The translations under genes were made by a program, and so were the position numbers. DNA of 64,000 nt. Source: an uncultured bacterium. Lineage in GTDB: Bacteria; Patescibacteriota; Minisyncoccia; Phycocordibacterales; PALSA-1337. The stretch is taken from assembly GCA_903839725.1 (NCBI GenBank), contig CAIMDG010000002.1:1078-65077 (forward strand), in the 5' to 3' direction. How positions within the stretch are numbered: position 1 is the stretch's first letter; each line of letters starts with the position of its first letter. The notes beneath the pieces were generated by a model. That model was not told the origin of the DNA, ran no database searches, and saw only the letters and a list, made by a program, of their open reading frames with translations. This document shows positions 3,045 through 47,545 of the stretch, in pieces.

Positions 3045-3056
3045 TATAGATCAATC

Positions 3057-3084
3057 AAAAACCCGACACTTTGTCGGGTTTTTG
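3057..3084 (+). terminator. Rho-independent terminator downstream of typA
   Basis: aaaaacccgacactttgtcgggtttttg: GC stem, small loop, flanking A and T tracts. Confidence 0.7.
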
Positions 3085-3234
3085 ATGTTTAAATCAAGAC
3101 AAACCTTAGTGAATACATTTAATATAATATTACAAATCTAAAAGGATATTTTGGTTTTATAAAACTAAACAACCAACAGGAATTAATTTGGATAAATAAT
3201 ACTCCAAATAAACTATCAATGACTATCAAAATTA

Positions 3235-4617
3235 TCAATTCCCCGTTGTGGTAATATGCAACTTCCAGCTCTCCAAATTACCTTCAGGACCACCACTGGC
3301 CCAGTCTCTAATCCATAAAAACCATATTCCGTTCGGTGATTTTCCATTAAATATTGATAGGTCATCTACAGGATGATATGTACCCGTAACAGGACTTATC
3401 AGTGGTGAATTTTGAATATTTACTTGGGCTGTATCCGCAAGTGTAACATCAAAACCTGCAATGTTATCGAGCATTTTCAAAACATCTCCATGATCTACAC
3501 CAAACAATCGCTGTCTAAGTGATGCAGGATAAGACCATGCCCCGAATATCACCTGTTGGACCTGATCTGGACTAAATAAAATCGCTTCTAAATCTCCATT
3601 AATACCTCCGTTAATTTTAACATCAACAGTCATATTTGATACAACACCAGATAGTCCGCTGACATTTAATTGATAAACATTGTACCTCCCATTAGGAATG
3701 ATTCCGCCACTAGAACTACTGAATACCATTGGTACCGGGTCTGCAACTGTCACCGTCACACCAAGTGTTTGTGTTTGTGCTGATCCGCCATTTCCAGTGA
3801 CTGTCGCAGTAACATTATATGTACCCGCCGCACTGTATGTATGAGTGAATGTGACTGGAGTTGTAATAGTATTTTGTGTACCTGTTGTTGTATCTCCCCA
3901 ATCGATAGAATACGTGAGCGAATCAGCATTTGGGTTTGAAACAGTTACTACCCATGTACCACCAGTAACAGTGGTAAGTGTACCTGGACCAGTGAAACTG
4001 CTTATTGTGGGTGCCGTAACAAACGTTTCTCCTGGATACCCATCACCAGAATATGATGAATAATTTGCATCACCGATCGGAATAGTTATAACTGTAGGAT
4101 TGTCTAGCGGATTAAGTGACTTGAGTTCACTTACATAATCAAAAGAAGCAGTTGGGGTGATTGCTACAGTAGTATCATTAGCTCCCGGAGTTACACCTGT
4201 CGAAGGTGCAGTTACGTAGGTGTATTCAAGACCACTTGTATTGATCATGTCGACAGGGATATGAGAGATGTATCCACCATCTACGAGAGGTTTGAGGACA
4301 CCTAGACCTAAATCAGGAACACCGTTTGCATTTGTAATACCTCTACATACAAATGAAGTTGTTCCGCTGATGATTTGAGGAGTACAACCTGCTACATTTT
4401 GCGCACCTGCTGGAACACCACCATGATCATTTGCGTATAAAGCCAACGCATTACGAACCTGAAGCGCATTTGAATTTCGCACAGAATCACGACCACTTGC
4501 TTGAGCAGCTCTAACTCCCACCAAAATCACTGAGGCAAGTGAGGCGATGATCGAGATGACGACCATGATTTCGATGAGGGTGAATCCTTTATTTTTGTAA
4601 TCTATAGCATGAATCAT
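3235..4617 (-). CDS. Type IV pilin-like protein with PKD-like repeat and C-terminal proprotein-convertase P-domain-like region
   Basis: N-terminal prepilin cleavage/methylation motif KGFTLIEIMVVISIIASLA. YSIDWGDTTTG PKD-like signature. C-terminal ...GDLEAILFSPDQV...GIWFLWIRDW...NLESWKLHI resembles a P-domain. Confidence 0.8.
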   Translation of the reverse strand: MIHAIDYKNKGFTLIEIMVVISIIASLASVILVGVRAAQASGRDSVRNSNALQVRNALALYANDHGGVPAGAQNVAGCTPQIISGTTSFVCRGITNANGVPDLGLGVLKPLVDGGYISHIPVDMINTSGLEYTYVTAPSTGVTPGANDTTVAITPTASFDYVSELKSLNPLDNPTVITIPIGDANYSSYSGDGYPGETFVTAPTISSFTGPGTLTTVTGGTWVVTVSNPNADSLTYSIDWGDTTTGTQNTITTPVTFTHTYSAAGTYNVTATVTGNGGSAQTQTLGVTVTVADPVPMVFSSSSGGIIPNGRYNVYQLNVSGLSGVVSNMTVDVKINGGINGDLEAILFSPDQVQQVIFGAWSYPASLRQRLFGVDHGDVLKMLDNIAGFDVTLADTAQVNIQNSPLISPVTGTYHPVDDLSIFNGKSPNGIWFLWIRDWASGGPEGNLESWKLHITTTGN

Positions 4618-4655
4618 ATGGTTTTATATATAAACCCGTACAACAAATGTGTTTC

Positions 4656-6170
4656 TTAACGTACACATCGAGCATATCTCAAATTATATTTATCATATGT
4701 TTCTATTTGTGGTGAACAACTAGTGGTTGAGAGCATCGGTACTCCATTTGCCCCCATAGACCACGATTTAGAACATGCCCATGCAAAACCACTTCTTCCT
4801 GAAAATTCTTCACTCGTCCAATACGGTGCAGTTTGTGTTGCTGATAACATTTTTGGTTGTACCAATGAGCCATCTTGCAGACCAGTCTGAAGCTCAGCTC
4901 GTGTAGGTAAATGCCATCCCGTCGTACCTCCACTACTTACACCAAAATTTGGGTCCGAACAAGTGCTTAAAGCATAATTCCATGAAGCAGAATTATACTG
5001 ACTAAAATCATATATAGACCACTTCGGTGCAAAGTACGCAACAACTGTTCGTGGAACACTCATGTCAACAACACACGTAGGATTGGTACCGGAAGAAGCA
5101 CAGTCACCTGCCCATCCATCAAAGAGACTAGCGTATGATGTTGATGCTGTAAGAGTAACTGATCCTGAGATTGTCGCCGAACAAGGATACTTGGATCCAA
5201 AAGAACCACTATTTTGACAATTGATACCACCGACCGAACTCGTAATAGTTCCGCCACCACCAAGTGATGAATAAGCTCCAGGACCTGGGAAACTAGGTAA
5301 ACCTGTCGTACTCACAGTAAGTAATTGTGTAACCGGCGCCGTCACAACTGTCTGCGTTGAAGCTGAAATCTGAGAATTAGACCCTGTCAAAGTCACGACA
5401 ATAGTGTAAGTACCCGCAGCTGCATATGCATGATAGGCATCAAACTTTGTACTTGATGATATAAGAAGATCACTTGTTGAATCTCCCCAATCATACGAAT
5501 ATGTCAGTGTAATCCCTGCTGGATTACGAACACTTGCAGTCCATGTTCCAGAAACACCAGACAAGATGGTAGAAGGTCCAGTAAAACCAGTGATTCCTGG
5601 TTGGATAACAATATTCGCAATTGGATATCCTCCATTTGGATACAATGCGGTGTTTTCTTCACCAATATATGTTGGAACAATCACAGGATCAGTAACCGGA
5701 TCAGCAGACTTGAACTCACTAACATAGTTGAATTCAGCTGTTGGTGTGATTGCTACAGTTGTACCGTTAGCTCCTGGGGTTACACCTGTTGTTGGTGCAG
5801 TTACGTAGGTATATTCAAGGCCATTGGTATTGATCATGTCGACAGGAATATGAGAGATGTATCCACCATCTACGAGAGGTTTGAGAACACCTGATTCCAA
5901 ATCACCTTTACATACATATGAAGTTGTTCCACCGATAGTCTGAGCATTACAACCTGCTACACCAGCACCTGATGGTACACCGCCATGGTCTGTTGCATAC
6001 AAAGCGAGTGCATTACGTACTTGCAAAGCACTTGATTGACGTGCAGAATCACGACCACTTGCTTGAGCAGCTCTGACTCCCACCAAAATCACTGAGGCAA
6101 GTGAGGCAATAATCGAGATAACAACCATAATTTCGATGAGGGTGAATCCGGTACGTAATGTGTGCTTCAT
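4656..6170 (-). CDS. Type IV pilin-like protein paralog with PKD-like repeat and C-terminal DUF1566/Lcl-like domain
   Basis: N-terminus TGFTLIEIMVVISIIASLASVILVGVRAAQASGRD is nearly identical to the neighbouring gene for about 165 aa. YSYDWGDSTS PKD-like. C-terminal WHLPTRAELQTGLQDGS...YWTSEEF is DUF1566-like. Confidence 0.8.
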   Translation of the reverse strand: MKHTLRTGFTLIEIMVVISIIASLASVILVGVRAAQASGRDSARQSSALQVRNALALYATDHGGVPSGAGVAGCNAQTIGGTTSYVCKGDLESGVLKPLVDGGYISHIPVDMINTNGLEYTYVTAPTTGVTPGANGTTVAITPTAEFNYVSEFKSADPVTDPVIVPTYIGEENTALYPNGGYPIANIVIQPGITGFTGPSTILSGVSGTWTASVRNPAGITLTYSYDWGDSTSDLLISSSTKFDAYHAYAAAGTYTIVVTLTGSNSQISASTQTVVTAPVTQLLTVSTTGLPSFPGPGAYSSLGGGGTITSSVGGINCQNSGSFGSKYPCSATISGSVTLTASTSYASLFDGWAGDCASSGTNPTCVVDMSVPRTVVAYFAPKWSIYDFSQYNSASWNYALSTCSDPNFGVSSGGTTGWHLPTRAELQTGLQDGSLVQPKMLSATQTAPYWTSEEFSGRSGFAWACSKSWSMGANGVPMLSTTSCSPQIETYDKYNLRYARCVR

Positions 6171-6201: not shown

Positions 6202-6405
6202 TTATACATTCAAGAATGACCAAATTTCACGCATAAACATAATATTGTATATAGCAAGAATAAGACATCCGACAATTATGACAAAAAGAAGGAGTATCGC
6301 TTCCCATTCTTTCTTAACAAAACCTCTTTCGAGTAACCAGGTTATAATTCGAGGAGGTGTACTACTGGGAGTGAAGCGGCCATACAGTATGTGTTTGTGT
6401 TTCAT
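6202..6405 (-). CDS. Small hypothetical membrane protein
   Basis: 67-aa ORF with one hydrophobic helix, ending 32 nt upstream of the pilin gene start, in an AT-rich region. Weak support. Confidence 0.25.
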   Translation of the reverse strand: MKHKHILYGRFTPSSTPPRIITWLLERGFVKKEWEAILLLFVIIVGCLILAIYNIMFMREIWSFLNV

Positions 6406-16270: not shown

Positions 16271-17125
16271 CTATTTAACAGCGATCGTGTGAGTCGGGAG
16301 ACCTTCGGCGTAAAGTTTTTGAACTTCAGAAGCAGTTAAGGTACTTCTGTATATCCTGAAAGTATCGAGATTGCCAACTATAGAACCATAGTAGTTGGGC
16401 CAAGAACAAGCTACAGCTATAGCTGTTATATTATTTACAGTACTCGAGATATCAATTATGGTTGGTCCAGATATTGCTACACCATCAACATATAAAGTAT
16501 TAGCTTTTGTTGTGTTGTTATAGTCCCATGTAATGTTATGCCATGTATTGATATCAGAACATGCAGGAGTTGGAATATCAAAGATTGTATTACTACTGAT
16601 TTTACCCAAGAACCTACCACCTAAACACGACAGATAACTAAAACTATTAACGCTGTTGAAGTTTACAGCAAACTCTTGAGGAGAGGGCCCAGAAACTGCT
16701 TGATTATTAATCCAGTAAGTAATTGTAAAACCATTTTGCGCCGTGCCCATAAGTGAGTCCTGTGGAAAAGATGCAAGAGTATAAGCATATGCTGTCGCAG
16801 TTGATTTTAAGGAAGAACCGTGACCATTGGGGGTATTTGTAGTATCAATTGAAATACTCGAGCCAGAAAAAGTCAAATTATAATTATTACCAGAGCTATC
16901 TAATCCGGGGTTCGAAGCACTATCAAACTGATAATCTACAAATTCATCTACACCTAATTTGTGGTGATTATGATCAGCAAAATTCAACCCTGCAGCAACT
17001 CGTGCTTTGGATTTTGCAGTACTTAATGCCGCCAAAACAACACTACTCAACAACCCAATAATAGAAATAACCACCAGAAGCTCAATGAGAGTAAATCCTT
17101 TTCTTTTTAAATGCAAAAGACCCAT
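16271..17125 (-). CDS. Type IV pilin-like protein (prepilin N-terminal domain plus lectin/LamG-like C-terminal region)
   Basis: KGFTLIELLVVISIIGLLSSVVLAA prepilin cleavage/methylation motif. Asn/Ser/Thr-rich beta-rich C-terminus. Confidence 0.7.
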   Translation of the reverse strand: MGLLHLKRKGFTLIELLVVISIIGLLSSVVLAALSTAKSKARVAAGLNFADHNHHKLGVDEFVDYQFDSASNPGLDSSGNNYNLTFSGSSISIDTTNTPNGHGSSLKSTATAYAYTLASFPQDSLMGTAQNGFTITYWINNQAVSGPSPQEFAVNFNSVNSFSYLSCLGGRFLGKISSNTIFDIPTPACSDINTWHNITWDYNNTTKANTLYVDGVAISGPTIIDISSTVNNITAIAVACSWPNYYGSIVGNLDTFRIYRSTLTASEVQKLYAEGLPTHTIAVK

Positions 17126-17149: not shown

Positions 17150-17794
17150 CTATGGACTTGTTACACAATAGTAATAAAAAGGAGGGCCAAAACTAAAAAT
17201 ACTATCAGAATTATACCTATCAGTGACTGATCCATCAGGTGCTATCTCAGTAACATGCGGTAGACTAAGAGTCGCTGAAGGGCTACCAACATATAACACA
17301 TACAATTTTGAAAATGTTGATACCCCACCGCATCCATATGTATTATTGGCATTCCACCAGGTTCCAAGTCTGTTAAAGAGATCTGTCTCGTATTCAAAAT
17401 AATACTTTGTATTATTTGGATAACCAGGATAATCAACTATTTGAGAAATGAATTTATTTGTTACCAAGGGATTAAGTCCATTCCGAAAAGCAGGGCCCTG
17501 TCCATTAAGTGCGGAAATAGACAAATCATTTATATCAACACCATCTGGGTTTGCTACAGTTTTTTGTAAAGGATACTGTCCAAATTGACTGTAATACAAC
17601 TCCAACGCATTTTGTAATTGTTTGAAAGATGCAATAATCTGAGCATCTTGAGCTCGCTGTCGAGAAACAGAAAGAGAAGCAAAGACAATACTTGTAAGAA
17701 ATCCAACAATAGCAATCACCACCAATAGTTCAATGAGGGTAAATCCCTTGACACCTTCTTTGGATTTATTTTTAAACCTAGAAAAATATTTCAT
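17150..17794 (-). CDS. Type IV pilin-like protein
   Basis: KGFTLIELLVVIAIVGFLTSIVFASL prepilin motif after a short basic leader. Confidence 0.7.
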   Translation of the reverse strand: MKYFSRFKNKSKEGVKGFTLIELLVVIAIVGFLTSIVFASLSVSRQRAQDAQIIASFKQLQNALELYYSQFGQYPLQKTVANPDGVDINDLSISALNGQGPAFRNGLNPLVTNKFISQIVDYPGYPNNTKYYFEYETDLFNRLGTWWNANNTYGCGGVSTFSKLYVLYVGSPSATLSLPHVTEIAPDGSVTDRYNSDSIFSFGPPFYYYCVTSP

Positions 17795-29321: not shown

Positions 29322-29437
29322 GGCACACAGGGTACATGCACTCATTTCTCGCACAAGTTTGTAAACATTGTGGTACGCGGTGTAATGTACATGTCTCTAA
29401 ACTTGTGCGAGAAATGAGTGCATGTACCCTGTGTGCC
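29322..29437. repeat. Palindromic element copy 3: 38-bp perfect inverted repeat (29322-29359 / 29400-29437) around a 40-nt core; outer imperfect inverted repeat 29303-29456
   Basis: ggcacacagggtacatgcactcatttctcgcacaagtt / aacttgtgcgagaaatgagtgcatgtaccctgtgtgcc are exact reverse complements. The core tgtaaacattgtggtacgcggtgtaatgtacatgtctcta differs from copy 1 at one base. Confidence 0.85.
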
Positions 29438-35065: not shown

Positions 35066-36136
35066 CTATTTTTCGAACATTTTGAGATATTGATCTGCCA
35101 TTACTTCACCATTTTTGGTAAATGAATAACTAGACATACCACCAGTTACTCCGCCGAGAAAATATGTCTTGAGTCCAGAAGCAATATTGTTTGTCGAGTG
35201 ACTTTTTGCATATACATCAATGAGTTTGAAAATATCATACGTTACGGAATCATAAAATGGCGACGCAGATTCTATTCCGTACTGTGTTTTGTATACCACC
35301 AAGAAATCTTTGTAAGCTTGAGTTTCTGTAGTAAATCCAGCATCAAAGCAAACTGACTTTAAACCAAATTCTTTTGGTGTAGGTGTATATTCACAGGCAT
35401 TCACATCGCCTATCAGAAGTGGCCTATAATTCAGGACGTCCAATTCCTTGTAAACCAATCCTACTGCTTTGCCACTCGTTGGAACATAAAACAAATTATT
35501 GATGCCTTGCGACTTTAATTTCATGAGTTGTGTGCGGAATGTATTGTCAGTTGCTGAATATGTTTCCTGGCTAATAATTTTTGCACCTAGTTTGTCTTGC
35601 AATGTCATCGCCACGGACTTTGAATAATCTTGCGCTTCATACAAAAGACCAATTTTTGAATCCACTGGTAATTTCAAGGCATAATTTGCCATTGCTCCAG
35701 CGATCGAGAGTGCGTCTGGTATAAATCGGATAACTTCGTCGCCTGTCTTGCGTATTTCAGATGAACCCGCGTATGCGGTGAGAATAAGATTACCACCAGT
35801 TTTTGCAAGTGGTGCCAGGGCCAGAACACTTCCACTGCAACTTACATAGAATACATGAACGTCTTGTTGTGTGAGTTTCAAATATAATGATACAGCTTTC
35901 TTGGTATCACATTGATCATCTTCGAAAATGAGTTGGAATGAAGTCGAACTTGCGAGCTTGATAGAGTTCGCAACTTCCTCGCCAATAAGTCCTGCCGGAC
36001 CACTGAGTGGACCAATTATGCCGATCTTTATTGGCTGATCAATAGAATGGTTTTGCTTTTTAGTAGTGATTACCCAAATAAGAGCCATTATAATAAGAAT
36101 GGAAATTATAATTAGACTAGTGCGAGATGGTTTCAT
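35066..36136 (-). CDS. ABC transporter substrate-binding protein, type I (LivK/Peripla_BP_6-like), membrane-anchored
   Basis: N-terminal TM anchor then IKIGIIGPLSGPAGLIGEEVANSIKLA, the typical start of Leu/Ile/Val-binding-protein family receptors. Confidence 0.75.
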   Translation of the reverse strand: MKPSRTSLIIISILIIMALIWVITTKKQNHSIDQPIKIGIIGPLSGPAGLIGEEVANSIKLASSTSFQLIFEDDQCDTKKAVSLYLKLTQQDVHVFYVSCSGSVLALAPLAKTGGNLILTAYAGSSEIRKTGDEVIRFIPDALSIAGAMANYALKLPVDSKIGLLYEAQDYSKSVAMTLQDKLGAKIISQETYSATDNTFRTQLMKLKSQGINNLFYVPTSGKAVGLVYKELDVLNYRPLLIGDVNACEYTPTPKEFGLKSVCFDAGFTTETQAYKDFLVVYKTQYGIESASPFYDSVTYDIFKLIDVYAKSHSTNNIASGLKTYFLGGVTGGMSSYSFTKNGEVMADQYLKMFEK

Positions 36137-36149
36137 ATATCAAAAATAA

Positions 36150-36902
36150 TTATTCCCCCAAATAAGCTTCAATAACATCCTTCCTCGCCAACACCACACT
36201 TGGTGCACCTTCTGCCAAAAGTTCACCAGAATCTAGAACGTAAATATGATCCGACAATTCACGGATAAGTTCCATATTGTGTTCCACTAGAATGACAGCT
36301 TTACCTTGATCGCGAAGTTCCCTCATGACAGTTACAACCGTTTTGACCATTTCTGGAAAGAGTCCGGCAAATGGTTCATCGAAGAAAATAACATTAATAT
36401 CTCCAACTCCCGAATGAATGATAGCAAGAATACGCGCAATCTCGAGAAGTTTACGTTGTCCATATGAAAGATTTTTAGCGAGTTCACCTCTCTTTTCCCA
36501 GAGACCAACTTTCTTCAACACTTCTTCGGCTTTTTCGAGGTGAAGTTTGCTGTGCTTTTCGAACAATGATTTCCAAATACTTCTTTCGGTGAGTACGACA
36601 AGAATATTGTCGAGGACGAGCATCTGCTCGAATAATCTCACATCTTGGAATGTTCTCGTAATACCAAAGAGTGGTACCTCGTGGGCATTCATTCTCTTGA
36701 GTGTTTCAACACCAGCAATGATTATTTCCCCACCATCCGCAGGAATCATACCTGTCAAAGTGTTGATGAGTGTAGACTTACCCGAACCATTTGGACCGAT
36801 GATGCCCGTAATTTTTCCTGCCTCAAATGAAATCGAAAGTTTGTTAACAGCATGAACGCCGTCGAAGTTTTTGCTTAGTTTGTTGGTGGAGAGGATGGGC
36901 AT
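36150..36902 (-). CDS. livG: Branched-chain amino acid ABC transporter ATP-binding protein (LivG-like)
   Basis: GPNGSGKST Walker A, LSYGQRKLLEIAR signature, IFFDEPFAGL Walker B. Start at ATG 36902 (MPILSTNKLSKNF) to match the LivG N-terminus and avoid overlap. Confidence 0.85.
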   Translation of the reverse strand: MPILSTNKLSKNFDGVHAVNKLSISFEAGKITGIIGPNGSGKSTLINTLTGMIPADGGEIIIAGVETLKRMNAHEVPLFGITRTFQDVRLFEQMLVLDNILVVLTERSIWKSLFEKHSKLHLEKAEEVLKKVGLWEKRGELAKNLSYGQRKLLEIARILAIIHSGVGDINVIFFDEPFAGLFPEMVKTVVTVMRELRDQGKAVILVEHNMELIRELSDHIYVLDSGELLAEGAPSVVLARKDVIEAYLGE

Positions 36903-36916
36903 GTTACACAAATTAC

Positions 36917-38077
36917 CTATTTCAATTCCTGCCACATTTCTTGACCTTTACTGTCAAAATAATGAAGACCAATAGGAACAACAGGATTAACATTCGAGCC
37001 GAGCGTCAATGATCCTGCAGCCCCATTCCAATCCTTAATGGCAGCTAGGTAGTTTTTTATACATACTGTATCTGTTGAACTCTTACATGATTCCATTGCT
37101 TCTTTTACGAGATATACTGCATCATACGAAGTTGCCAAATACGCAATATTTGTTGGAGGTAATTGTTTGTATGCAGTTTTATATGCTTCTATGAATGCAG
37201 CTGTTTTTGAGTTGGCTGAACTTACGAAAGCGTCAGTCGTGAATATGCGAGGATTATTAAGCAATCCACCAGATTGATCATTGATAGCTGCGGACAATGA
37301 TTGTGCACCAGCAATTATTGGATACGTACTGAGCAGACCGAGCTCTTTCATTTGCTTGTAGAATGTAACACTTGCACCCGCACCCTGAGATGCAAATAAT
37401 ATTGCATCTGGCTTTTGTTTATTGATCTTCAATATATATGATCGCAAATCATTTACATCAGAATTGAATGCATCATTCGAAATGACTTGTCCACCCAATT
37501 TCACGAATTCGGCCAAGAATGCTTTGTACACTCCAACTGGAAAATCTTTATTTTCATATAATGCAGCTACTTTTCTATATCCCTGTGAATATGCATACGC
37601 AGCTGACTTGGCAGTATAGAACTCACTCGAAGGAGAATTTCGGAAAATATAACTGCCTGAATTCGTGACTGCAGGTGAAGAAGTAATTGAGGCAATAATG
37701 ACTACTTTGGCTTTTTCTACGATTGGGGCGATAGCGAGAGTCTCGGTACTACAATGTCCACCAAGAATAACATTAACCTTATCTATATTGATCAACTTAT
37801 TTGCAACAGTTGCTGAAGTTGCCCCATCACACTTACCATCTTCAACTATGAGATTCAATTTCTTTCCGAGAATACCTCCGGCTTGATTAATTTCATTCTG
37901 AGCGATCAAAACTGACTGCATTGCTGGTTCTCCGTAACTTGCAGCAGAGCCAGTGAGTGGTGATATAAGACCGATACTAATTTGATTACCCTGATCTTTT
38001 TTGAAGACACCAGAAACCGCAATCACAATAATAATGATAACAATAATCCCCCAAGTTACTTTTTTATTCATGCTCAT
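36917..38077 (-). CDS. ABC transporter substrate-binding protein, type I (LivK-like), membrane-anchored
   Basis: TM anchor then ISIGLISPLTGSAASYGEPAMQSVLIAQNEINQAGGILGKKL. Confidence 0.75.
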   Translation of the reverse strand: MSMNKKVTWGIIVIIIIVIAVSGVFKKDQGNQISIGLISPLTGSAASYGEPAMQSVLIAQNEINQAGGILGKKLNLIVEDGKCDGATSATVANKLINIDKVNVILGGHCSTETLAIAPIVEKAKVVIIASITSSPAVTNSGSYIFRNSPSSEFYTAKSAAYAYSQGYRKVAALYENKDFPVGVYKAFLAEFVKLGGQVISNDAFNSDVNDLRSYILKINKQKPDAILFASQGAGASVTFYKQMKELGLLSTYPIIAGAQSLSAAINDQSGGLLNNPRIFTTDAFVSSANSKTAAFIEAYKTAYKQLPPTNIAYLATSYDAVYLVKEAMESCKSSTDTVCIKNYLAAIKDWNGAAGSLTLGSNVNPVVPIGLHYFDSKGQEMWQELK

Positions 38078-38130
38078 AAATTAGGTTGTAATACCTAAAA
38101 TATACCAAGAATACGATCTTTGAGCTATAG

Positions 38131-39246
38131 CTACCTCCACACCCCTAACACCCCATCTTTCATCACCTGAACCTGTACGTTGATATCTTCAACTGAATGA
38201 TTTGGTGCAAAACTGATCGTACCATTTGGAGTCGTGAACTTTGTTTTGGCGATATAACTAGCAACCTGTGAATTATCAGAACTATGTGCAATAGCTTGTG
38301 CCAAGACGTACGTAGCATCAAAGAATTTATCAACGGACTTTGTAGCCGTCATGTTATAAGCCTTCTGGTACATATCCGCGAATAATTTCGTGGTAACTTC
38401 CCAGTTCAAGATTACAACATTGTTGAGTGGACTCTTGTCAGTCTCATTGGCAAAAGCATCGAGCGCTCCGTTGTATGACATAACGATTGGGGTGAAACCA
38501 AGTTGCTTCGCTTGTTTGAGGAACGTGAGCGGATCATTTCCGACCATGTCGAGGAATACGCCATCCACACCTTTATTCTTTAATTTGATAATTGTAGTTT
38601 TCCAATCATTGTCACCAATCTGTGTATATGGGTTGTCGATAACATCTGCACGACCAAGATCCTTCATGACACCAGCGAGCGTCTTTTCGATTTCAACACC
38701 GAAGCTCGACTGATAATGAACAACAGCCAATTTCTTGATTGTGCTTGAGGCGATGAATGGTTTGATCTTCTGAATTGTCTTGTCGAAGTCTGTAAGCATC
38801 ACGAAACTCTGATCATTCAAGTCAAAGCCACCCGCAATACGGAAGTTCGAAGGAGAAACAAAGGCAATCTTGTCATTCAAGGCAATTGGCAGAATAGGTT
38901 GGGCGGTGAAGTCAAAGACGCCACCAATAACACCGTTTACATGATCGATAGTTACCAGTTTGTTAAAAGCTGAAACTGCCAACTTACCGTCAGTGTGATC
39001 ATCTTCGAAAATGACTTCAACTTTTCTACCGTTGATTCCACCTGCGTCATTGATATTCTTTACTGCCAAGTTAATACCATTCTTGCCATATTCACCCCAA
39101 GGTGCAGCGAAACCTGACAAAGATAATACAGCCCCAATCTTTATTGGATTATTACTTTGTGGCTTTTGACTAGGTCTTGAAACAGAAACACCGATAATCA
39201 CAATGATAATAATAGCGACGACGGTCCATATAATTTTTTTATTCAT
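38131..39246 (-). CDS. ABC transporter substrate-binding protein, type I (LivK-like), membrane-anchored
   Basis: Start at ATG 39246 (MNKKIIW...). IKIGAVLSLSGFAAPWGEYGKNGINLAVKNINDAGGINGRKVEV. Confidence 0.75.
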   Translation of the reverse strand: MNKKIIWTVVAIIIIVIIGVSVSRPSQKPQSNNPIKIGAVLSLSGFAAPWGEYGKNGINLAVKNINDAGGINGRKVEVIFEDDHTDGKLAVSAFNKLVTIDHVNGVIGGVFDFTAQPILPIALNDKIAFVSPSNFRIAGGFDLNDQSFVMLTDFDKTIQKIKPFIASSTIKKLAVVHYQSSFGVEIEKTLAGVMKDLGRADVIDNPYTQIGDNDWKTTIIKLKNKGVDGVFLDMVGNDPLTFLKQAKQLGFTPIVMSYNGALDAFANETDKSPLNNVVILNWEVTTKLFADMYQKAYNMTATKSVDKFFDATYVLAQAIAHSSDNSQVASYIAKTKFTTPNGTISFAPNHSVEDINVQVQVMKDGVLGVWR

Positions 39247-39342
39247 ATATTTTAGGTACATTAAAAGCCGCTTGTGGCGACTTGCACATAGTATATACTC
39301 GTGATATATTATGTCCATAATTCGGCGAAAAGCGAATACTAT

Positions 39343-40107
39343 ATGAATACAAGCTTTCTAGATATATTCAATTTAGGAGACACGTCCAAGGAGGTGCTTC
39401 TTGATATCATCGCCCATGGCGTTTCCTCTGTGGCTGTTATTGCCCGTCGCCTCGGTATGCCAAAGTCGACTGTATATGACGCCATTACCCCCCTTTTGGA
39501 CCAGAGTTTGGTGAATGAATACAGCAATAACCACGGTAAAACCTTTGGTATCTCCGACAATGAACAGCTCAAGCGTGCCCACGAAGAAAAGATCAATGAG
39601 CTCAAAAAGGCCCAGTCTTCCCTGCTCTCATTCATCGGTACACATAACCAAAAAGAAAGTTCAGTTTCTCCGAAGGTAAAATTCTATGCGGGTAATCTGG
39701 GTATCAAGCAGGCGTTCCGCGATATGATGTGGGAAAAGAACATCACCGAAACGTATCTTTTTTGGCCAGCCAAAGAGATGCTCGATATCGACGAAGACTT
39801 CTTCAAATGGCACGGTACTCAGCGTTTCAAATATGGTGTTTACATATATGCGATCGAGACATACAAGGACCGTATCATTCAACGCAATGCGAAACAGAAA
39901 TGGATGCACAATACCAAAGATAGTTTGTCTGAAGCTCGCTATCTACCAAAAGGTGTAAATTGCAAAATGAGTTTCTGGATTTATGGTGACAAATGTCTCT
40001 TTGCTTCTGGCGGTAAAGAAAAGATTGCGTTTGCAGTTCACAGCAAAGAATTCTCGTCCCTGATGAAACTCCTCTGGAAAAATATGTGGGAGAATGCGGA
40101 GAAATAA
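39343..40107 (+). CDS. TrmB-family transcriptional regulator
   Basis: N-terminal HTH LGDTSKEVLLDIIAHGVSSVAVIARRLGMPKSTVYDAITPLLDQSLV plus about 170-aa TrmB-type C-terminal domain. Divergent from the SBP gene at 39246. Confidence 0.7.
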   Translation: MNTSFLDIFNLGDTSKEVLLDIIAHGVSSVAVIARRLGMPKSTVYDAITPLLDQSLVNEYSNNHGKTFGISDNEQLKRAHEEKINELKKAQSSLLSFIGTHNQKESSVSPKVKFYAGNLGIKQAFRDMMWEKNITETYLFWPAKEMLDIDEDFFKWHGTQRFKYGVYIYAIETYKDRIIQRNAKQKWMHNTKDSLSEARYLPKGVNCKMSFWIYGDKCLFASGGKEKIAFAVHSKEFSSLMKLLWKNMWENAEK

Positions 40108-40136
40108 AAAACACCGAATGATCGGTGTTTTTTATT
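40106..40136. terminator. Bidirectional hairpin terminator
   Basis: aaaaaacaccgaatgatcggtgttttttattttt. Confidence 0.7.
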
Positions 40137-40137
40137 T

Positions 40138-41217
40138 TTAATTCGGCAACTTTCCTCCCTCAATCGTTCCAATCTTTAATTCTGGAATGCGCACACCATT
40201 TTCATCAAACACAATCTTTCCATCAGCCCCGACGAGGGTGACATGCTTCATATTGTTCACCCATGTAGCCTTATCTGAATTGTAACTTTGAGCTAGAAGC
40301 ATAAAAGCATTGTAACCAGTCTCTGAACCGATCGCCGGTTCGACACCATACATTTTCTTGTAAGCCTCATTGAACGTACTGCGGTACACGTTTGGAACGG
40401 TATAGAGAATACTTCCATTTAACACATTCATATTTCCGAGCACTTTCGCATAGTCACCAAATCCTGTTTGGATATTTGCGTCGAATACATACCGATATTT
40501 TGTGTGTGAGATTGAACCGAGCTCCTTTGCAAGAAGTCCGCCAGAAGTTGGTTTGACGATAAACACGATTACGTCTGGCTTGAATGAGATCGCTTTCAAA
40601 GCACTTGATTTGATATCCCGACCATCAGCTGAAACTTGGATTTCGTTGTATGGCATAGCAAATCCTTTTTCAAAACCTTGAGCAAAACGTTCAAAAGCCG
40701 AAGATCCTTTGTCGACAAACACAACGGCATTCTTGAATCCTTTACCAGCAACGTATTTACCAAGCTCAACTTCAGCTGGCACACTTCCTGGCCACAACTG
40801 AACAATGTTGTCATTCGCCGCTTCAATTCCTTGTTCAAAACCGAGAGCAACTGGCATACCAGTCTGCACAACGTCTCCATAGATCGAATCAATTGTAACC
40901 GTTGTCATGTTAATGAGACCATCAACATGATCAATACTTACAAGTTTCTTGTAGGCCGAAAGTCCTTTCTTGGAATCAAAACTGTCATCTTCAGTTATAA
41001 GCGAAATCTGTTGATTTATATGTGAACTATTCCATTCAGCCTGAGCGAGCTTTGCACCTTTGGCAAAACTATCACCGACAGCGGCATAATCACCGGTCAT
41101 TCCAGCAATCATGCCAAATGTGAGCTGTGTGGTTGGTTTCTTCGTATTAAACAAACCAATCATCACAATAACTAGAATTACCACAACTAGGCCTGAAATT
41201 TGATATTTTTTATTCAT
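40138..41217 (-). CDS. ABC transporter substrate-binding protein, type I (LivK-like), membrane-anchored
   Basis: Start ATG 41217 (MNKKYQISGL...). LTFGMIAGMTGDYAAVGDSFAKGAKLAQAEWN. Confidence 0.75.
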   Translation of the reverse strand: MNKKYQISGLVVVILVIVMIGLFNTKKPTTQLTFGMIAGMTGDYAAVGDSFAKGAKLAQAEWNSSHINQQISLITEDDSFDSKKGLSAYKKLVSIDHVDGLINMTTVTIDSIYGDVVQTGMPVALGFEQGIEAANDNIVQLWPGSVPAEVELGKYVAGKGFKNAVVFVDKGSSAFERFAQGFEKGFAMPYNEIQVSADGRDIKSSALKAISFKPDVIVFIVKPTSGGLLAKELGSISHTKYRYVFDANIQTGFGDYAKVLGNMNVLNGSILYTVPNVYRSTFNEAYKKMYGVEPAIGSETGYNAFMLLAQSYNSDKATWVNNMKHVTLVGADGKIVFDENGVRIPELKIGTIEGGKLPN

Positions 41218-41387
41218 ATAATGTGATTTATTTGTAACAATATTAGTATACATATATCAAATATAATCAAGAAATAAATCATAACTTTGAATATATACAT
41301 GAATTATATCCATATGTATCAATCCATATCTAAATATTAGTATGTCAGGAATATTGACACTTTCATACATAATGCTAGAATCTACAC

Positions 41388-42203
41388 ATGAAAATCAAAC
41401 AAAGTTCAATCATAGACCTCCTACAGCTCAGCAAAAAAGAGCAGGTCATTTTCAACCTACTCAACAATGAATCATCCACACCTGTATCACTAGCCAAGAA
41501 ATGCTCTATCCCCCGCCCTACCATATATATCACTCTCGAAAAGCTCCACAACCGTGGCTTAATCATAAAAAAGAAAATCTCACACAAAACCTACTGGCAA
41601 AAGAATTCTGATGATGAAATCGAGAGTCTCGCCTACCGATTCAAGGAGTTGCTTTCAGCAAGTAGTGCTACAAAGCAAGAAAAGATTTCCATCACTGATT
41701 CTTCACAGGTCGTTGTTCATCGTGGACAAAAAGCTATCTTCAAACTATTCTCCAGTCTAGTTGACGAACACGCTGGTGAAAAGATGATCGCACTTCAGGG
41801 AAATCTTGCAGGATATGCGTGGAGTAAGTTATTTAACGTGCAAGAAATTAACATCATCAACCAGAAGATTAAGAAAAATAAAGTTATTACGGAACTTGTT
41901 ACTTCTAGGGAGTGGTTCAAGAGTCAAACTGAACTCTTTGGTACAGGTTGGGCCAAAAACTTTGAAGGTAGAACGATTCGTATGCAGGATGTTGGGAACC
42001 AGTACTTGAATTACGCTAGTCAGATATTTATTTTCAGAGACAAAGTATATATTGACGCAATGTCGGATAAAGTCTTCATCGAAATAAAGAACCCAGAGAT
42101 TGCGAAGCTGCTGGTTTCAATTACGCAGTTTGTTCAAGATCATTCGGAGGTGTTGGATGCGAATAAACTTCTCAGAGAACTGATCAGTAACAATTCAAAA
42201 TAG
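41388..42203 (+). CDS. TrmB-family transcriptional regulator
   Basis: HTH LSKKEQVIFNLLNNESSTPVSLAKKCSIPRPTIYITLEKLHNRGLI plus TrmB C-terminal domain. Confidence 0.7.
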   Translation: MKIKQSSIIDLLQLSKKEQVIFNLLNNESSTPVSLAKKCSIPRPTIYITLEKLHNRGLIIKKKISHKTYWQKNSDDEIESLAYRFKELLSASSATKQEKISITDSSQVVVHRGQKAIFKLFSSLVDEHAGEKMIALQGNLAGYAWSKLFNVQEINIINQKIKKNKVITELVTSREWFKSQTELFGTGWAKNFEGRTIRMQDVGNQYLNYASQIFIFRDKVYIDAMSDKVFIEIKNPEIAKLLVSITQFVQDHSEVLDANKLLRELISNNSK

Positions 42204-43070
42204 TTATAACCTATACTCCCCAACCAAACCCTGTGGCCTATACAACATCAACAGTATCAATATAACACCATACACCACTTGACGCATTTGCGCTGCAATG
42301 TCATCTGGAAAACCGACGAAGCGCAGGACTTCCGGCAAAAGGATGAGACATATTGCCCCGATAACTGCACCCTTGTTATTCGCCATACCACCCAAGATAA
42401 CCACAGCCAGAATGAAGATGGATTCCGTCAAAGTGAAACTCGATGGATCGATAAATGTAATGTACGAAGCAAAAAGTGAGCCTGCCACTGCCGCCATTCC
42501 TGCCGAGACAACGAAGATGGCGAGCTTGTACCAGAGAACGCGGTAACCAAAGACTTGAATAGCTTTTTCATCTTCACGGATAGCCTTGAGCACACGACCA
42601 AACGATGAATTCGTAATGTAGTGACAAACACCAAAAACAATCAGAGCACAGACAACCGCAAGAACAAGGAACCAACTATTTTCAGAGAAAGTAAAACCGA
42701 ATATGCTTGGGCGAGGAATTCCAGGAATACCGAGCGGACCACGTGTGAGCGACTGCCAATTCAAGAAAATACTATAAATGATGACGTTGAAACCAAATGA
42801 ACCCAGTGCATAATAATCATCTTTGAATTTTGAAAGCACAAAACCTATCGCTAGACTCAACACTGCGGTAATGATAATACTGAAAAGCATAGCGAGAAAG
42901 AAATTCATGCCAACTGAAGTAAGCAGGATTGCTGTCACATATGCACCAATACCATAGAATGCTGCTTGAGTAATACTGAGCAGACCTGTGAATCCTACAA
43001 TCAAGTTCAAAGAAAGACCGAGAATGGCGTAGATCGAGATCAGGATGGCAATGTGTATGAGATATTCCAT
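42204..43070 (-). CDS. livM: Branched-chain amino acid ABC transporter permease (LivM-like)
   Basis: Eight or more TM helices. GIPGIPRP and EAAFYGIGAY-type motifs of the LivM family. Confidence 0.8.
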   Translation of the reverse strand: MEYLIHIAILISIYAILGLSLNLIVGFTGLLSITQAAFYGIGAYVTAILLTSVGMNFFLAMLFSIIITAVLSLAIGFVLSKFKDDYYALGSFGFNVIIYSIFLNWQSLTRGPLGIPGIPRPSIFGFTFSENSWFLVLAVVCALIVFGVCHYITNSSFGRVLKAIREDEKAIQVFGYRVLWYKLAIFVVSAGMAAVAGSLFASYITFIDPSSFTLTESIFILAVVILGGMANNKGAVIGAICLILLPEVLRFVGFPDDIAAQMRQVVYGVILILLMLYRPQGLVGEYRL

Positions 43071-43071
43071 A

Positions 43072-43938
43072 TTATTTCTTTAATATTCCCTGTGGTCTAA
43101 ACAACAAAAAAATAATCAATACTCCGAAGGCAATCGCATCTTTCCATTCACCGGAAATCTGCCAGATACCAAAGTTCTCGATAAAGCCGAGGAGGAATGC
43201 ACCGAGTACACCGCCATATACATTGCCGATACCACCGATGATACACGCAATCACACCTTTCAAGAGAAGTGACAATCCCATCGTTGGTTCTATACCAGTA
43301 TCAAAGCCAACGAGAATACCAGCGAGACCGGCGATCGCTGAGCCTATAAAAAATGTCCATCCGATAACTCTAACAGTATTGATACCAACGATCTTCGAAA
43401 CTTCCTCATCATCCCCCACTGCTTTGATAGCTTTACCGAACAATGTGTACCTGAACATGAGACCAATACCAACCATGATGAGAATTCCGAGAATGAGAAT
43501 GATAAGTTGTGTCTGCGTGATCACTCCGCCAAAAACGGTATATACCATTTCACTACCCGCATTTTTCGAAAGTGTCTGGAATTGACTCGTAAATAAAATA
43601 GCAATAATAGCCTGTAATGCTGTCATCACTCCGAGAGCAGCAACCAGAAGAACCATGCTTGATGATTTGCGAGTACGTAGTGGTGCGTATACAAAATGAT
43701 ATATAAGTACCCCAATAGTTCCTGCAATGAGAATACCGAGAGCAACAGAAACGAATATATCTAAACCGAGTATTTTATAGAAGAAGAAAACAGTATATCC
43801 ACCAACCGCCGCAAGAGCACCGTATCCCAAATCAAAGAATTTAGCTGTACCGTAAATCAGATTGAAACCGAGAGCGACCATGGCATATATCGCTCCAGCA
43901 ATGATTGAGTTGACGATGAGTTGAGGGATGATGTCCAT
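43072..43938 (-). CDS. livH: Branched-chain amino acid ABC transporter permease (LivH-like)
   Basis: Polytopic membrane protein. GYGALAAVGGY and EPTMGLSLLLKG motifs of the LivH family. 1-nt gap to livM. Confidence 0.8.
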   Translation of the reverse strand: MDIIPQLIVNSIIAGAIYAMVALGFNLIYGTAKFFDLGYGALAAVGGYTVFFFYKILGLDIFVSVALGILIAGTIGVLIYHFVYAPLRTRKSSSMVLLVAALGVMTALQAIIAILFTSQFQTLSKNAGSEMVYTVFGGVITQTQLIILILGILIMVGIGLMFRYTLFGKAIKAVGDDEEVSKIVGINTVRVIGWTFFIGSAIAGLAGILVGFDTGIEPTMGLSLLLKGVIACIIGGIGNVYGGVLGAFLLGFIENFGIWQISGEWKDAIAFGVLIIFLLFRPQGILKK

Positions 43939-44160
43939 GAATGTATGTAATACAGCTAAGTATACCCATTAAATAGGTACTTGAAAATAGACCATTATTT
44001 GATATCCTAAAGACTGAAAGGACCTCTATGAAATACGATCGACCAACGTGCACCTCAGCAACAACAACTCGGCCACCCATTTCGGCGAATTTTTCACCGC
44101 CACCCGCGGAACCCCGCCCGAAACCGGCTGCCAAACCGAAAAAGTAGGGACCGAAGCTGC

Positions 44161-44194
44161 ACAACAAAAGCCCACGAACTTGTTCGTGGGCTTT
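44161..44194 (-). terminator. Rho-independent terminator after the SBP gene
   Basis: 11-bp stem agcccacgaac/gttcgtgggct followed, on the minus strand, by ttttgttgtg. Confidence 0.65.
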
Positions 44195-44220
44195 CATACT
44201 AATACAATTAACTAATCAAC

Positions 44221-45333
44221 TTACTGAACATCTACAAACTTACCATCTTTGGCGATTTTTATCATTGCAGGTTTCTGAACATCTCCATTTGATTCAAATG
44301 TAATAACGCCACTTGCGCCTTGATAATTATTACCAATCTTTAATAAATTTTCTTTTATTGAATCACCAGAAGTTCCCCCAGCTTTGATAGCTCTAAGTAA
44401 CAAGGTCATAGCATCATACCCTTCTGCGGTATACATTGTTGGAGCATTTCCAAAACGAGCCTTGTATCTTTCCGTAAAAGTTTTACTTGCTTCATTTGTT
44501 GGAACCACAGTGGCTGAAACTAAAACCCCATTTACATCCTTTCCTCCAACATCGAAGAATTCTTTTGTATCTACCGATTCGTCCAGAGCTGCAAATTGAA
44601 CATGTAAACCTAGATTCTTTGCTTGCTTAAAGATTAAATTGAATTGCTTATAAAATGACGCGACGAAGATTACATCAACTCCAGCCCCCTTCGCCTTTAA
44701 TAATTGAGTTCTAAAATCTGTGTCTTTTGCATTAAAGGTATCTTTTGTCACAACTTGACCACCTGCTTTAGCAAAAGTATCACTAGCATCACTAACTTCT
44801 TGGACCATCGTATCCTGACTATTGTCGTTTATGAAAGCTGCTTTTTTAAAGCCTTTTGAATACACGTACTCTGCCAAAGAATTTGCCCTGACTGAATCTG
44901 AAGCAATTGTTCTGAACATATATTTACCAGCATTAGTCAAAGTCTTTGAAGTTGCTGCTGGTGTAATTATCAATATTTTTTTAGGATCGGTAATTGGTAA
45001 TACTGATAAAACTTCAGAAGAACATACTGGGCCATACAAAGCATCTACCTTATCAATATTTAATAACTTAGATACAGCAGTAACACCATCTGCTGAGGCA
45101 CAATTGTGATCATCTTCAATAATGAAATTAACCTTATCTTTCATACCACTTTCTTCAATTGCCATAATAGCAGCATTGCGAGAACTTTCAGCATATGAAG
45201 CCAAATCTCCAGAAAGTGGCAATACGGCTCCAATCTTAACAGGACCAATCTCAGTATTTGAATTACGTGTTGCAGAAATAATGATTATCACAACCACAAC
45301 AATTCCAATCACCCACCAAATACCTTTTTTCAT
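44221..45333 (-). CDS. ABC transporter substrate-binding protein, type I (LivK-like), membrane-anchored
   Basis: TM anchor then VKIGAVLPLSGDLASYAESSRNAAIMAIEESG. Confidence 0.75.
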   Translation of the reverse strand: MKKGIWWVIGIVVVVIIIISATRNSNTEIGPVKIGAVLPLSGDLASYAESSRNAAIMAIEESGMKDKVNFIIEDDHNCASADGVTAVSKLLNIDKVDALYGPVCSSEVLSVLPITDPKKILIITPAATSKTLTNAGKYMFRTIASDSVRANSLAEYVYSKGFKKAAFINDNSQDTMVQEVSDASDTFAKAGGQVVTKDTFNAKDTDFRTQLLKAKGAGVDVIFVASFYKQFNLIFKQAKNLGLHVQFAALDESVDTKEFFDVGGKDVNGVLVSATVVPTNEASKTFTERYKARFGNAPTMYTAEGYDAMTLLLRAIKAGGTSGDSIKENLLKIGNNYQGASGVITFESNGDVQKPAMIKIAKDGKFVDVQ

Positions 45334-45390
45334 AATAAAGAATAATTACAAATAATATGTCAATTATAGTTGATACTCCCATTTCTGCAA

Positions 45391-45422
45391 CAACAAAAAA
45401 CCACCCTCTCGAGTGGTTTTTT
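45391..45422. terminator. Hairpin terminator (sequence duplicated at 47512)
   Basis: caacaaaaaaccaccctctcgagtggtttttt. The identical 32-mer recurs at 47512-47543. Confidence 0.7.
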
Positions 45423-45437
45423 ACTGTTCAAATTAAC

Positions 45438-46538
45438 TTATGGCTGTATTGTTATTGGTTTACCATCTTTAATCATACGTATTACCGCTCCAGAAACAAC
45501 AAGTCCATCAGAATCAATACTAAGATTCCCCAAGGCCCCTTGAACGTTTTTGATTGTATACAATTTTTCAGCAATCTGTTCTGACGTCGGCAATGTATTT
45601 GAGTCTACTTTTTCTGCAGCATCTGAAATTAAATGAATTATATCGTAAGCGTTTCCTGCCCCGAGTGAAGGTGGTTTATTATAGATTTTTGAATAAGAAT
45701 CTATAAATGATAATGTTGTATCAGCACCATTTACGTACCAATCTCCTTCATATATTTCAGGATGATCACTTTGTTCAAACGATTCTATAGAAGTAACAGG
45801 CGTAGTGATTCCATTTTCTTTAAGTTGTTTTGCAATAAGATCCAATTCTGGACTAAAGGCAAACAATACGTATATATCCGGATGATTGGATTGTGCCTTA
45901 GCAATCATCGTTCTAAAATCTTTTGTGCCAAAATCAAACATTTCTTGATCTACTATCTGTATGTCTGTATTTTGTATATCTTTTTGCAAAGAATGTATCA
46001 CGGCCGTTACACCTTGTATTTTAGCACCCAATATTGCCACCCTATGATATCCTCGCTTTTGTAATTCTGGCACAAAGATCTTCGTCTCCTCATAAGGTGG
46101 GGTCCAGTGAATAAAATTATAATGGCCATTTGCGACATTTGGATCAGAAGCAATACCAAACTGAATAACACGTGCTTTTTCAGCAACTGGATTGACCGCA
46201 TTACCTGCTGCCGAAGCAAGTGTGACGATTGCCGCTACATGATCAATAGATATAAGTTTTTGGGCTGCACTTACTGCCTTTGACGCATCAAATGAATCAT
46301 TTTCAAGTATTACCTTGTATTGCCATTTATTATTTGTAGTTGAAGCCAACTCAGCTTCAGCCATGCGAACCGCGTATTTAATCCCATCGCCCAAAAAGGC
46401 AACATTTCCAGTTAAAGGTGCGATGACACCAATTTTTATTATTTTATTATCATTTAATACTATGTGCTTAGAGTAATTAGCTCCAATCAAAATACCGGCC
46501 AAAATGACGATTATTACGACAAAAATCTTTGTTTTCAT
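45438..46538 (-). CDS. ABC transporter substrate-binding protein, type I (LivK-like), membrane-anchored
   Basis: TM anchor then IKIGVIAPLTGNVAFLGDGIKYAVRMAEAE. Confidence 0.75.
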   Translation of the reverse strand: MKTKIFVVIIVILAGILIGANYSKHIVLNDNKIIKIGVIAPLTGNVAFLGDGIKYAVRMAEAELASTTNNKWQYKVILENDSFDASKAVSAAQKLISIDHVAAIVTLASAAGNAVNPVAEKARVIQFGIASDPNVANGHYNFIHWTPPYEETKIFVPELQKRGYHRVAILGAKIQGVTAVIHSLQKDIQNTDIQIVDQEMFDFGTKDFRTMIAKAQSNHPDIYVLFAFSPELDLIAKQLKENGITTPVTSIESFEQSDHPEIYEGDWYVNGADTTLSFIDSYSKIYNKPPSLGAGNAYDIIHLISDAAEKVDSNTLPTSEQIAEKLYTIKNVQGALGNLSIDSDGLVVSGAVIRMIKDGKPITIQP

Positions 46539-47509: not shown

Positions 47510-47511
47510 CC

Positions 47512-47545
47512 CAACAAAAAACCACCCTCTCGAGTGGTTTTTTGT
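47512..47545. terminator. Hairpin terminator (duplicate of 45391)
   Basis: caacaaaaaaccaccctctcgagtggttttttgt. Confidence 0.7.

Follow-up and report, generated by a model that had tools for sequence, protein, structure and literature searches.

The 64,000-nucleotide stretch of DNA analysed here, referred to below as the window, comes from an uncultured member of the Patescibacteriota (assembly GCA_903839725.1, contig CAIMDG010000002.1, positions 1,078 to 65,077) and carries two minus-strand type IV pilin genes, A and B, arranged head-to-tail. Gene B (4656-6170, minus strand) encodes a modular pilin of 504 amino acids (aa) and lies upstream of gene A (3235-4617, minus strand), which encodes another of 460 aa; the intergenic spacer between them is 38 nucleotides (nt) long (4618-4655, minus strand). 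The reading that I favour, as probable though well short of certain, is that A and B are two modular pilins with differing heads whose common N-terminal carrier module was recombined from B into A in an old event.

Two modular type IV pilins in tandem

Both genes are full open reading frames (ORFs) with a start codon and a signal peptide. An initial annotation of this DNA was right to call them pilin genes: the products match PF07963 (N_methyl; 30.8 bits for A and 21.8 for B, cutoff 21.2) and TIGR02532 (prepilin cleavage/methylation; 30.8 and 26.9 bits, cutoff 16.3), and both contain the motif G|FTLIE. In A this motif follows the leader MIHAIDYKNK (protein start MIHAIDYKNKG|FTLIEIMVVISIIASLASVILVG), and in B it follows MKHTLRT (protein start MKHTLRTG|FTLIEIMVV…). 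Each protein therefore shows the hallmarks of a class III signal peptide, namely a polar leader ending in Gly, Phe at +1, Glu at +5 and a hydrophobic stretch. The order of modules is the same in the two: class III signal peptide, pilin module (~11-182), linker, PKD domain and finally a head, the two heads being unrelated. Because they combine a signal peptide, a pilin domain, a linker, a PKD domain and extra heads, A and B qualify as modular type IV pilins as Raynaud et al. (PMC8179133) use the term.

An AlphaFold2 (AF2) model of A, built on a 17-sequence family alignment, is lollipop-shaped, with a long N-terminal helix packed on an antiparallel beta-sheet. Helix alpha1 spans residues 14-65 and the strands 78-182, at a predicted local distance difference test (pLDDT) of 71-92; residues 185-200 form a low-confidence linker, the PKD domain (204-303) has a pLDDT of 82-95, and the head (311-460) stays at low confidence despite the alignment. 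The top Foldseek matches of this model in the PDB are to its PKD part (the PKD domain of ColG, template modelling score 0.81), and none is to a solved pilin. A single-sequence AF2 model of B was unusable (pLDDT 36).

The PKD domain of A (residues ~201-303; 3709-4017, minus strand) was located by Pfam (PF00801/PF18911, PKD/PKD_4) and by the model, and that of B (residues ~191-276; 5343-5600, minus strand) by Pfam PKD_4. The nearest member of the family is P0006, here called D, which lies at a syntenic locus in another organism (L166) and serves throughout as the orthologue control; the PKD sequence of B is 73-74% identical to that of D at the nucleotide level and 51-54% identical to that of A.

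The putatively beta-rich head of A (residues ~304-460; 3238-3708, minus strand) does not align to B beyond residue ~306. It has a weak match to P_proprotein (PF01483, 27.6 bits) that covers its last 33 aa only, and a word-index protein search with it gave no homologues. A fold assignment for this head was dropped, as AF2 confidence was low even with the alignment. The head of B (residues ~277-504; 4659-5342, minus strand) resembles Lcl_C/DUF1566, scoring 32.8 bits against Lcl_C where the Pfam cutoff is 34.9. In the orthologue P0006 both Flg_new_2 (a divergent InlB B-repeat) and Lcl_C scored, and in B itself Flg_new_2 was not called. By this comparison the head of B probably holds an InlB-B-repeat-like segment followed by Lcl_C/DUF1566. 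The same head type recurs in P0006, in the first gene of another array (L170 g1) and in L171 g5653.

A continuous region of shared 5' sequence

The 5' similarity of A and B is far above chance (blastn, 470 nt at 79-80% identity with gaps, E = 6e-121). The shared region covers codons ~11-170 of A (4108-4587, minus strand; 84-85% in the repeat search, blastn 4118-4587) and codons ~8-158 of B (5697-6149, minus strand, in the repeat search; blastn 5707-6149), the A copy being the putative recipient and the B copy the putative donor. It is continuous over ~480 nt and consists of three collinear ungapped segments at near-equal identity (4403-4587/5965-6149, 85%; 4339-4396/5904-5961, 84%; 4108-4315/5697-5904, 84%), shifted against one another by two in-frame indels, of 3 and 24 nt, and by nothing else. 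No stretch of exact identity exceeds 38 nt, the next two being 32 and 31 nt long. The initial annotation had described an almost identical block and a second, conserved one, separated by divergent DNA. The similarity that it saw is real, but its first block (4430-4617/5985-6170) is 83% identical (149/179) and its second (4160-4310/5740-5895) 90% (132/147), neither of them being almost identical; the stretch between them, far from divergent, is itself 82% identical (72/88). The DNA downstream does diverge as it said: linker and PKD sequences of A and B share 54-57% of their nucleotides, and the C-terminal ~170-230 codons are unrelated.

Homology sets in at the Gly-Phe cleavage-site codons (4587/6149), downstream of the start codons, and the leader peptides before it differ (48% nucleotide identity). 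At the other end, sliding windows place a breakpoint zone at A codons ~153-165 (4125-4161, corresponding to 5714-5750 in B, minus strand), over which A-B identity drops from ~85% to ~55%, some 20-30 residues ahead of the low-confidence linker 185-200 of the model.

Two peaks of identity stand out within the module. The first is the coding core of alpha1-N, GFTLIEIMVVISIIASLASVILVGVRAAQASGRD (4482-4587, B copy 6044-6149, minus strand), with 92-97% identity in 20-codon windows and exact A-B runs of 20, 32 and 31 nt; only ~60 nt of it reaches 92-97%, and the core is 91% identical to the orthologue in L166. The second, …KPLVDGGYISHIPVDMINT…, lies in the globular pilin core (4238-4296, B copy 5827-5885, minus strand) and contains exact runs of 38 and 20 nt; the motif YISHIPVD at this point is kept across the family, and the peak also appears in the B-D orthologue profile. 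Indeed, the A-B identity profile within the module follows the B-D profile (Spearman 0.71, indicative only, as the windows overlap). The near-identity of alpha1-N would thus be explained in part by constraint, and the peaks are best taken as the segments of strongest protein-level constraint, sitting atop a module-wide elevation that derives from recombination. The idea that the two blocks are separate conversion tracts was tried and rejected: the drop in synonymous identity over codons 47-68, which falls inside the first block, does not reach significance (permutation p = 0.20; Fisher p = 0.11).

Probable recombination of the carrier module

Where A and B have the same residue, they use the same codon at 96 of 137 positions before codon ~200 and at 14 of 36 after it; codon usage alone would give a fraction of 0.40 by chance (maximum chi-squared permutation p = 0.012). 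The synonymous p-distance (pS) between A and B likewise rises from 0.37 in the pilin module to 0.62 in linker plus PKD (Fisher p = 3e-4). For B and D, the corresponding values are 0.43 and 0.44 (Fisher p = 1). Since this control is flat, module-specific synonymous constraint cannot explain the step between A and B. The synonymous divergence (dS) over codons 75-160 is 0.45 for A-B, 0.78 for B-D and 1.01 for A-D; over linker and PKD it is 1.3-1.4 for A-B and 0.63-0.77 for B-D. Within the tract, then, the paralogues are closer to each other than the orthologues are, and outside it the opposite holds, which is as expected of interlocus conversion; so is a synonymous discontinuity that has no counterpart in the orthologue control.

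A triplet test, in which sites that differ between A and D are walked over and the result is assessed by permutation, points the same way. Its best segment is codons 75-153, where B agrees with A at 28 sites and with D at 14, and elsewhere agreement with D dominates (p = 0.0012 over all informative sites). Neighbour-joining trees of the separate modules, with codon bootstrap, disagree as well: the pilin module gives (A,B) at 88-95% inside (A,B,D) at 99-100%, and linker plus PKD gives (B,D) at 100% and, with A excluded, (B,D,G_g1,G_g2) at 81%, where G_g1 and G_g2 are two genes of genome G. The PKD domain of A thus looks like an old lineage and not a B-like one. Gene conversion had been read from the mosaic identity by the initial annotation, and the synonymous step, the triplet test and the incongruent module trees uphold a recombinational origin for the shared 5' part; its fine two-block pattern is mostly protein conservation, with the same peaks between orthologues.

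The direction can be judged from B and D, whose dS inside the tract (0.78) matches that elsewhere (0.63-0.87). Because their distance is equal inside and outside the tract, B has kept its history and A has gained B-like sequence, from which I infer conversion from B to A. The tract has diverged by 14-16% and has no exact run above 38 nt, which does not fit a recent or ongoing exchange; with 15-20% divergence in the shared part and so short a longest run, the event is an old one.

The explanation proposed is that the carrier module of A was overwritten by, or derived from, that of B via homologous recombination. Gene conversion from B to A, with the leader and codon ~160 as its limits, would be the most likely route, at about the time when this lineage split from its nearest sequenced relative, and the leader, linker, PKD domain and head of A would retain an older, separate history. 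Since the leaders differ, an internal tract is favoured over a duplication of the 5' end. Of the two constrained segments, alpha1-N packs in the core of the pilus filament; the other is the YISHIPVD core. A single pilus machinery would incorporate A and B, probably as minor or tip subunits, so that their heads display alternative adhesion modules and the uniform carrier keeps each head compatible with that machinery. A tip location and the binding of surface ligands through the heads are suggested for both proteins by analogy with PilB and PilC of Streptococcus sanguinis and with PilX1 and PilX2 of TM7x.

A number of observations weigh against this explanation. Restricted to synonymous differences (59 sites), the triplet test gives p = 0.074. 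The in-tract pS of A-B (0.34-0.39) is barely below that of B-D (0.43-0.51), and the margin for (A,B) is modest; where pS reaches 0.6 or more it is close to saturation, and linker and PKD are aligned with less certainty. B has one close orthologue (D) and no orthologue of A is known, so that loss of A in the lineage of D and a later arrival of A are inseparable. The step at codon ~160 is predicted alike by gene conversion and by a duplication with fusion, and does not discriminate between them. Neither pilus machinery nor a prepilin peptidase was found among the scanned ORFs of the window. The functions of the heads, finally, rest on weak domain calls (Lcl_C below its cutoff, a P-domain match of 33 residues, a low-confidence AF2 model).

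Alternative explanations

The most probable alternative is a partial duplication with fusion, whereby a copy of the 5' part of B was joined to a pre-existing or imported gene for a PKD domain and head, and no conversion between paralogues took place. A is absent from the syntenic locus L166, its PKD domain groups away from those of B, D and G, and the association of the carrier with many heads across the family implies that such fusions occur. However, a 5' duplication should have brought the leader and start region along with it, and those of A are unrelated to those of B. Codons 47-74 of A also look old (pS 0.64 to B, against 0.51 for B-D), although this dip alone is not significant. I regard this history as rather unlikely, if a serious competitor to conversion from B to A.

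Lower still in probability, at the level of an outside chance, stands a history with no recombination at all, in which an old duplication of the whole gene was followed by purifying selection on the pilin module while the PKD domains and heads diverged or were replaced. It accounts naturally for identity peaks that match the segments conserved family-wide and that follow the orthologue profile, for the similar conservation of alpha1-N among A, B and D (pS 0.22-0.31) and for the low nonsynonymous divergence of the module (dN 0.09). What it does not account for is the synonymous step between A and B in the face of a flat B-D control, or the switch of topology between modules at 88-100% bootstrap. 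Moreover, the alpha1-N codons are saturated at synonymous sites in comparison with the distant orthologue L005 (dS 1.4-1.7), which argues against strong constraint at the nucleotide level.

The initial annotation also saw in the shared blocks a present-day substrate for the cassette-like exchange of heads, with antigenic or host-range variation as its outcome, and called for a search for silent head cassettes elsewhere. The genes are indeed tandem and in the same orientation, and they share exact matches of 31-38 nt, a length near the minimum for RecA-dependent exchange in E. coli. Mosaic boundaries do differ in the array of another genome, and two public contigs (L005 and L003) break at or near the repeats. 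Against this, the pair consists of two complete genes only, and no silent, promoterless or truncated further copies were found in the window (tblastn, blastn) or in the related loci L001 and L166-L171. The shared part is 15-20% diverged; RecA-dependent exchange drops with divergence and is expected to be rare at that level with exact runs of at most 38 nt. Besides, a crossover between the direct repeats of A and B would delete one gene instead of swapping heads.

The hallmarks of a dedicated system are missing as well. No G-quadruplex (G4) motif of the form (G3+N1-7)x3 G3+ occurs on either strand of the window. The inverted repeats between 3000 and 6600 are a terminator-type hairpin, some AT-rich palindromes and pairs no longer than 20 nt that are expected by chance; none of them is shufflon-like, and no recombinase is found among the neighbours of the pilin locus. 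A blastn search (word size 7) of 3235-6170 against the window gave no second copy of the 3' part of either gene, such as the template repeat of ~100-150 nt that a diversity-generating retroelement aimed at a DUF1566/C-type-lectin-fold head would have, and there is no reverse transcriptase among the scanned ORFs of the window, a scan that covered a subset of the ORFs of 150 aa and more. Population data agree: over the locus, the contigs from four independent assemblies match at every position (100% identity), the exact proteins are encoded on 15-16 contigs, and clusters at 90% add four singletons, each with a single substitution. None of about 20 public contigs carries a hybrid, or a variant that differs at several residues or copies the paralogue. 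Programmed cassette switching is thus not supported by the sequences, and active head variation at this locus can be put aside as most improbable. They support instead an ordinary product of gene-family evolution, in which an old recombination event is combined with head shuffling over evolutionary time and no active switch is involved.

Relatives of the pair

An exhaustive profile search with the globular pilin domain, run over 1.84 billion representatives, brought the family to light: it gave 50 hits, of which 14 fell below 1e-10, and the module appears to be a small, rare and previously undescribed family. Other searches brought up little: a word-index protein search with the N-terminal 155 aa of B gave only four matches, one of them useful (P0001), and scans of genomes and metagenomes with the pilin alignment returned generic alpha1-N matches alone and no close relatives. 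The metagenome-assembled genomes in which distant relatives occur would point to a Patescibacteria-like bacterium.

The family members that could be placed in their genomes show how variable such loci are. At L166 the B orthologue P0006, which has the B head type, is the only pilin between a small upstream ORF and bipA (62 nt between). The organism represented by L005, L169 and L170 carries three tandem pilins at the syntenic site, next to truB and the small ORF. In this array (L170) the first gene, g1, has the B head type, the second, g2 (P0007), has repeated InlB-B-like domains, and the third, g3, is partial. Genes g1 and g2 are 82-88% identical over codons 23-50 and 103-123, 52-67% identical over codons 53-100 and 85-97% identical across the linker and the first half of the PKD domain, and their heads are unrelated. 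L171 holds yet another pair of pilins with different heads. The mosaic boundaries in the L169/L170 array and in the L171 pair differ from those of A and B. A 1.27-kb stretch without called genes 3' of the single-copy gene P0010 (L167 7543-8815) contained no pilin remnant in a tblastn search with the family.

In the pilin module, tandem paralogues group by genome in three of the three genomes that have arrays (77-99% bootstrap); in the PKD domain they do so in one array only. Across the family the carrier module is joined to at least six C-terminal architectures, and the re-assortment of heads on an evolutionary time scale is accordingly a supported, sequence-level reading. Because of the genome-wise clustering in arrays and the number of architectures, homogenisation of the carrier and re-assortment of heads are both traits of the family over evolutionary time.

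The arrays also leave a mark on assemblies. The pilin of L005 seems cut at 122 aa, with an unrelated tail, and in L170 it has its full length of 500 aa; the truncation is probably an assembly break at a paralogue repeat. Both L005, at 1411-1582, and L003, which ends at window position 4624, break or turn chimeric where tandem pilin paralogues share sequence. This calls for caution in annotating the family from short-read assemblies.

Gene neighbourhood

Directly upstream of B lies a 67-aa ORF with a single transmembrane segment (6202-6405, minus strand; MKHKHILYG…ITWLLERGFVKKEW…). Homologous ORFs of 69 and 65 aa precede the first pilin gene at L005 849-1058 (also in L169) and at L166 3-200, respectively. 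In three organisms, then, the first pilin gene is directly preceded by an ORF of 65-69 aa with one transmembrane segment; this ORF has no family match assigned and may be a conserved partner of the pilin locus. A scan of the spacer between B and A for promoters and terminators found no such site, with counts not above the shuffled expectation, and the small ORF, B and A would be co-transcribed. On the other side, between gene A and the convergent bipA, the repeat search found a perfect hairpin with 15-bp arms at 3054-3086, ATCAAAAACCCGACA ttt TGTCGGGTTTTTGAT, which is likely to be a bidirectional terminator closing the pilin unit.

The neighbour genes of the pair are bipA, truB, hisS and a dsbA-like gene. 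Two further pilin genes, at 16271-17125 and 17150-17794 (both minus strand), adjoin dnaG/rpoD. The former encodes a modular pilin whose lectin module, Laminin_G_3/ConA-like, is of the class found in PilC of S. sanguinis. The product of the latter is short, GspG-like and possibly the major subunit. Another duplicated surface-protein module lies near the pilin locus: at L001 17106-21515, beyond the start of the window, and at L166 5801-7713 there is a tandemly duplicated cassette of genes for a 94-aa, a 125-aa and an fn3-like protein of 675-862 aa, which in the relative adjoins pth.

Farther away in the window, 35066-48681 holds seven paralogous Peripla_BP_6 (Liv-type) solute-binding genes, along with genes for two TrmB-like regulators and for two permeases and two ATPases. 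Such an expansion of binding proteins is unusually large for a single ATP-binding cassette transporter. An imperfect intergenic palindrome of ~110 nt (CACAGGGGTGGCACATACTCATTTTCC…GGAAAATGAGTATGTGCCACCCCTGTG) occurs at ~1040-1150 and at 29325-29435, the copies having 80% column identity; it is not a tRNA, and may be an element resembling repetitive extragenic palindromes (REP) or miniature inverted-repeat transposable elements (MITE).

Implications

In Patescibacteria, the type IV pilus is the organelle with the best support for a role in attachment to hosts. At this locus and in its relatives one carrier, with its PKD stalk, displays different putative binding heads, and the recombinational history of the carrier is separate from that of the heads. 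The Lcl_C/DUF1566-type and P-domain-like heads are putative host-binding adhesins and so candidates for a part in host recognition. The simple evolutionary model offered is one of carrier homogenisation with head re-assortment; it involves no new mechanism, since each of its ingredients (modular pilins, tandem duplication, gene conversion) is familiar.

A bolder idea, to which I attach a fairly low probability, is that in ultrasmall host-dependent bacteria like those of the candidate phyla radiation (CPR) tandem modular pilins form an evolvable library of adhesin heads. Recurrent gene conversion would keep the carrier, and sometimes the PKD stalk, uniform, so that any head would suit one pilus machinery, and the uniform carrier would in turn give the homology for duplication, exchange and loss of heads. 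Were this true, host or surface specificity would shift between close lineages.

Comparison with known systems

The clearest known case of pilin head swapping is the shufflon of R64 and other IncI plasmids, where the tyrosine recombinase Rci, acting at short inverted sfx repeats, inverts C-terminal segments of PilV downstream of a single gene and so sets recipient specificity. The resemblance lies in alternative C-terminal heads on one pilin N-terminal part. The present locus differs in having two complete genes in direct orientation, no such repeats and no adjacent recombinase. In the pilE/pilS system of Neisseria, one expressed gene recombines non-reciprocally with many silent copies that are 5'-truncated and promoterless; the copies have near-identical conserved stretches, a G4 lies upstream, and population heterogeneity is high. 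Pilin genes with conserved and variable parts, and gene conversion between copies, are common to both systems, whereas silent copies, near-identity, the G4 and heterogeneity were not found here and the homogenised part is the conserved N-terminal module.

Another parallel is concerted evolution, in which interlocus gene conversion acts on bacterial paralogues such as the tuf genes; PMC5485169 treats the process in general. Paralogues closer than orthologues over a tract, a synonymous discontinuity and a switch of topology are shared with such cases. In contrast to them, the tract at this locus, being 14-16% diverged, is an old one that takes in a single module of a multidomain gene, and ongoing conversion is not evident.

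Among Patescibacteria, the saccharibacterium TM7x has two large minor pilins, PilX1 and PilX2, with lectin-like C-terminal domains that are implicated in host binding (PMC11623550). Like A and B, these are patescibacterial pilins with extra beta-rich domains at the C terminus, and in both organisms pilin loci are scattered in a small genome. No sequence relationship between the two sets was detected, however, and PilX1 and PilX2 lack the canonical PilD signal that A and B have as G|FTLIE.

The architecture itself is best compared with the modular pilins surveyed in PMC8179133, which number more than 1,200 proteins in 264 architectures, several of them represented in CPR bacteria, and are proposed to be tip-exposed adhesins. 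Tandem genes that share a homogenised carrier do not feature in the available part of that paper. Those pilins include two S. sanguinis proteins, PilB, which carries a vWA module, and PilC, whose module is a ConA-like lectin (PMC8179133). By comparison, A and B belong to a rare module family known from sequence and combine the pilin module with a PKD domain and a P-domain-like or Lcl_C/DUF1566 head. In overall plan they nevertheless resemble PilB and PilC, with a class III signal peptide and a small pilin module, then a short linker, and last a bulky domain foreign to the pilus.

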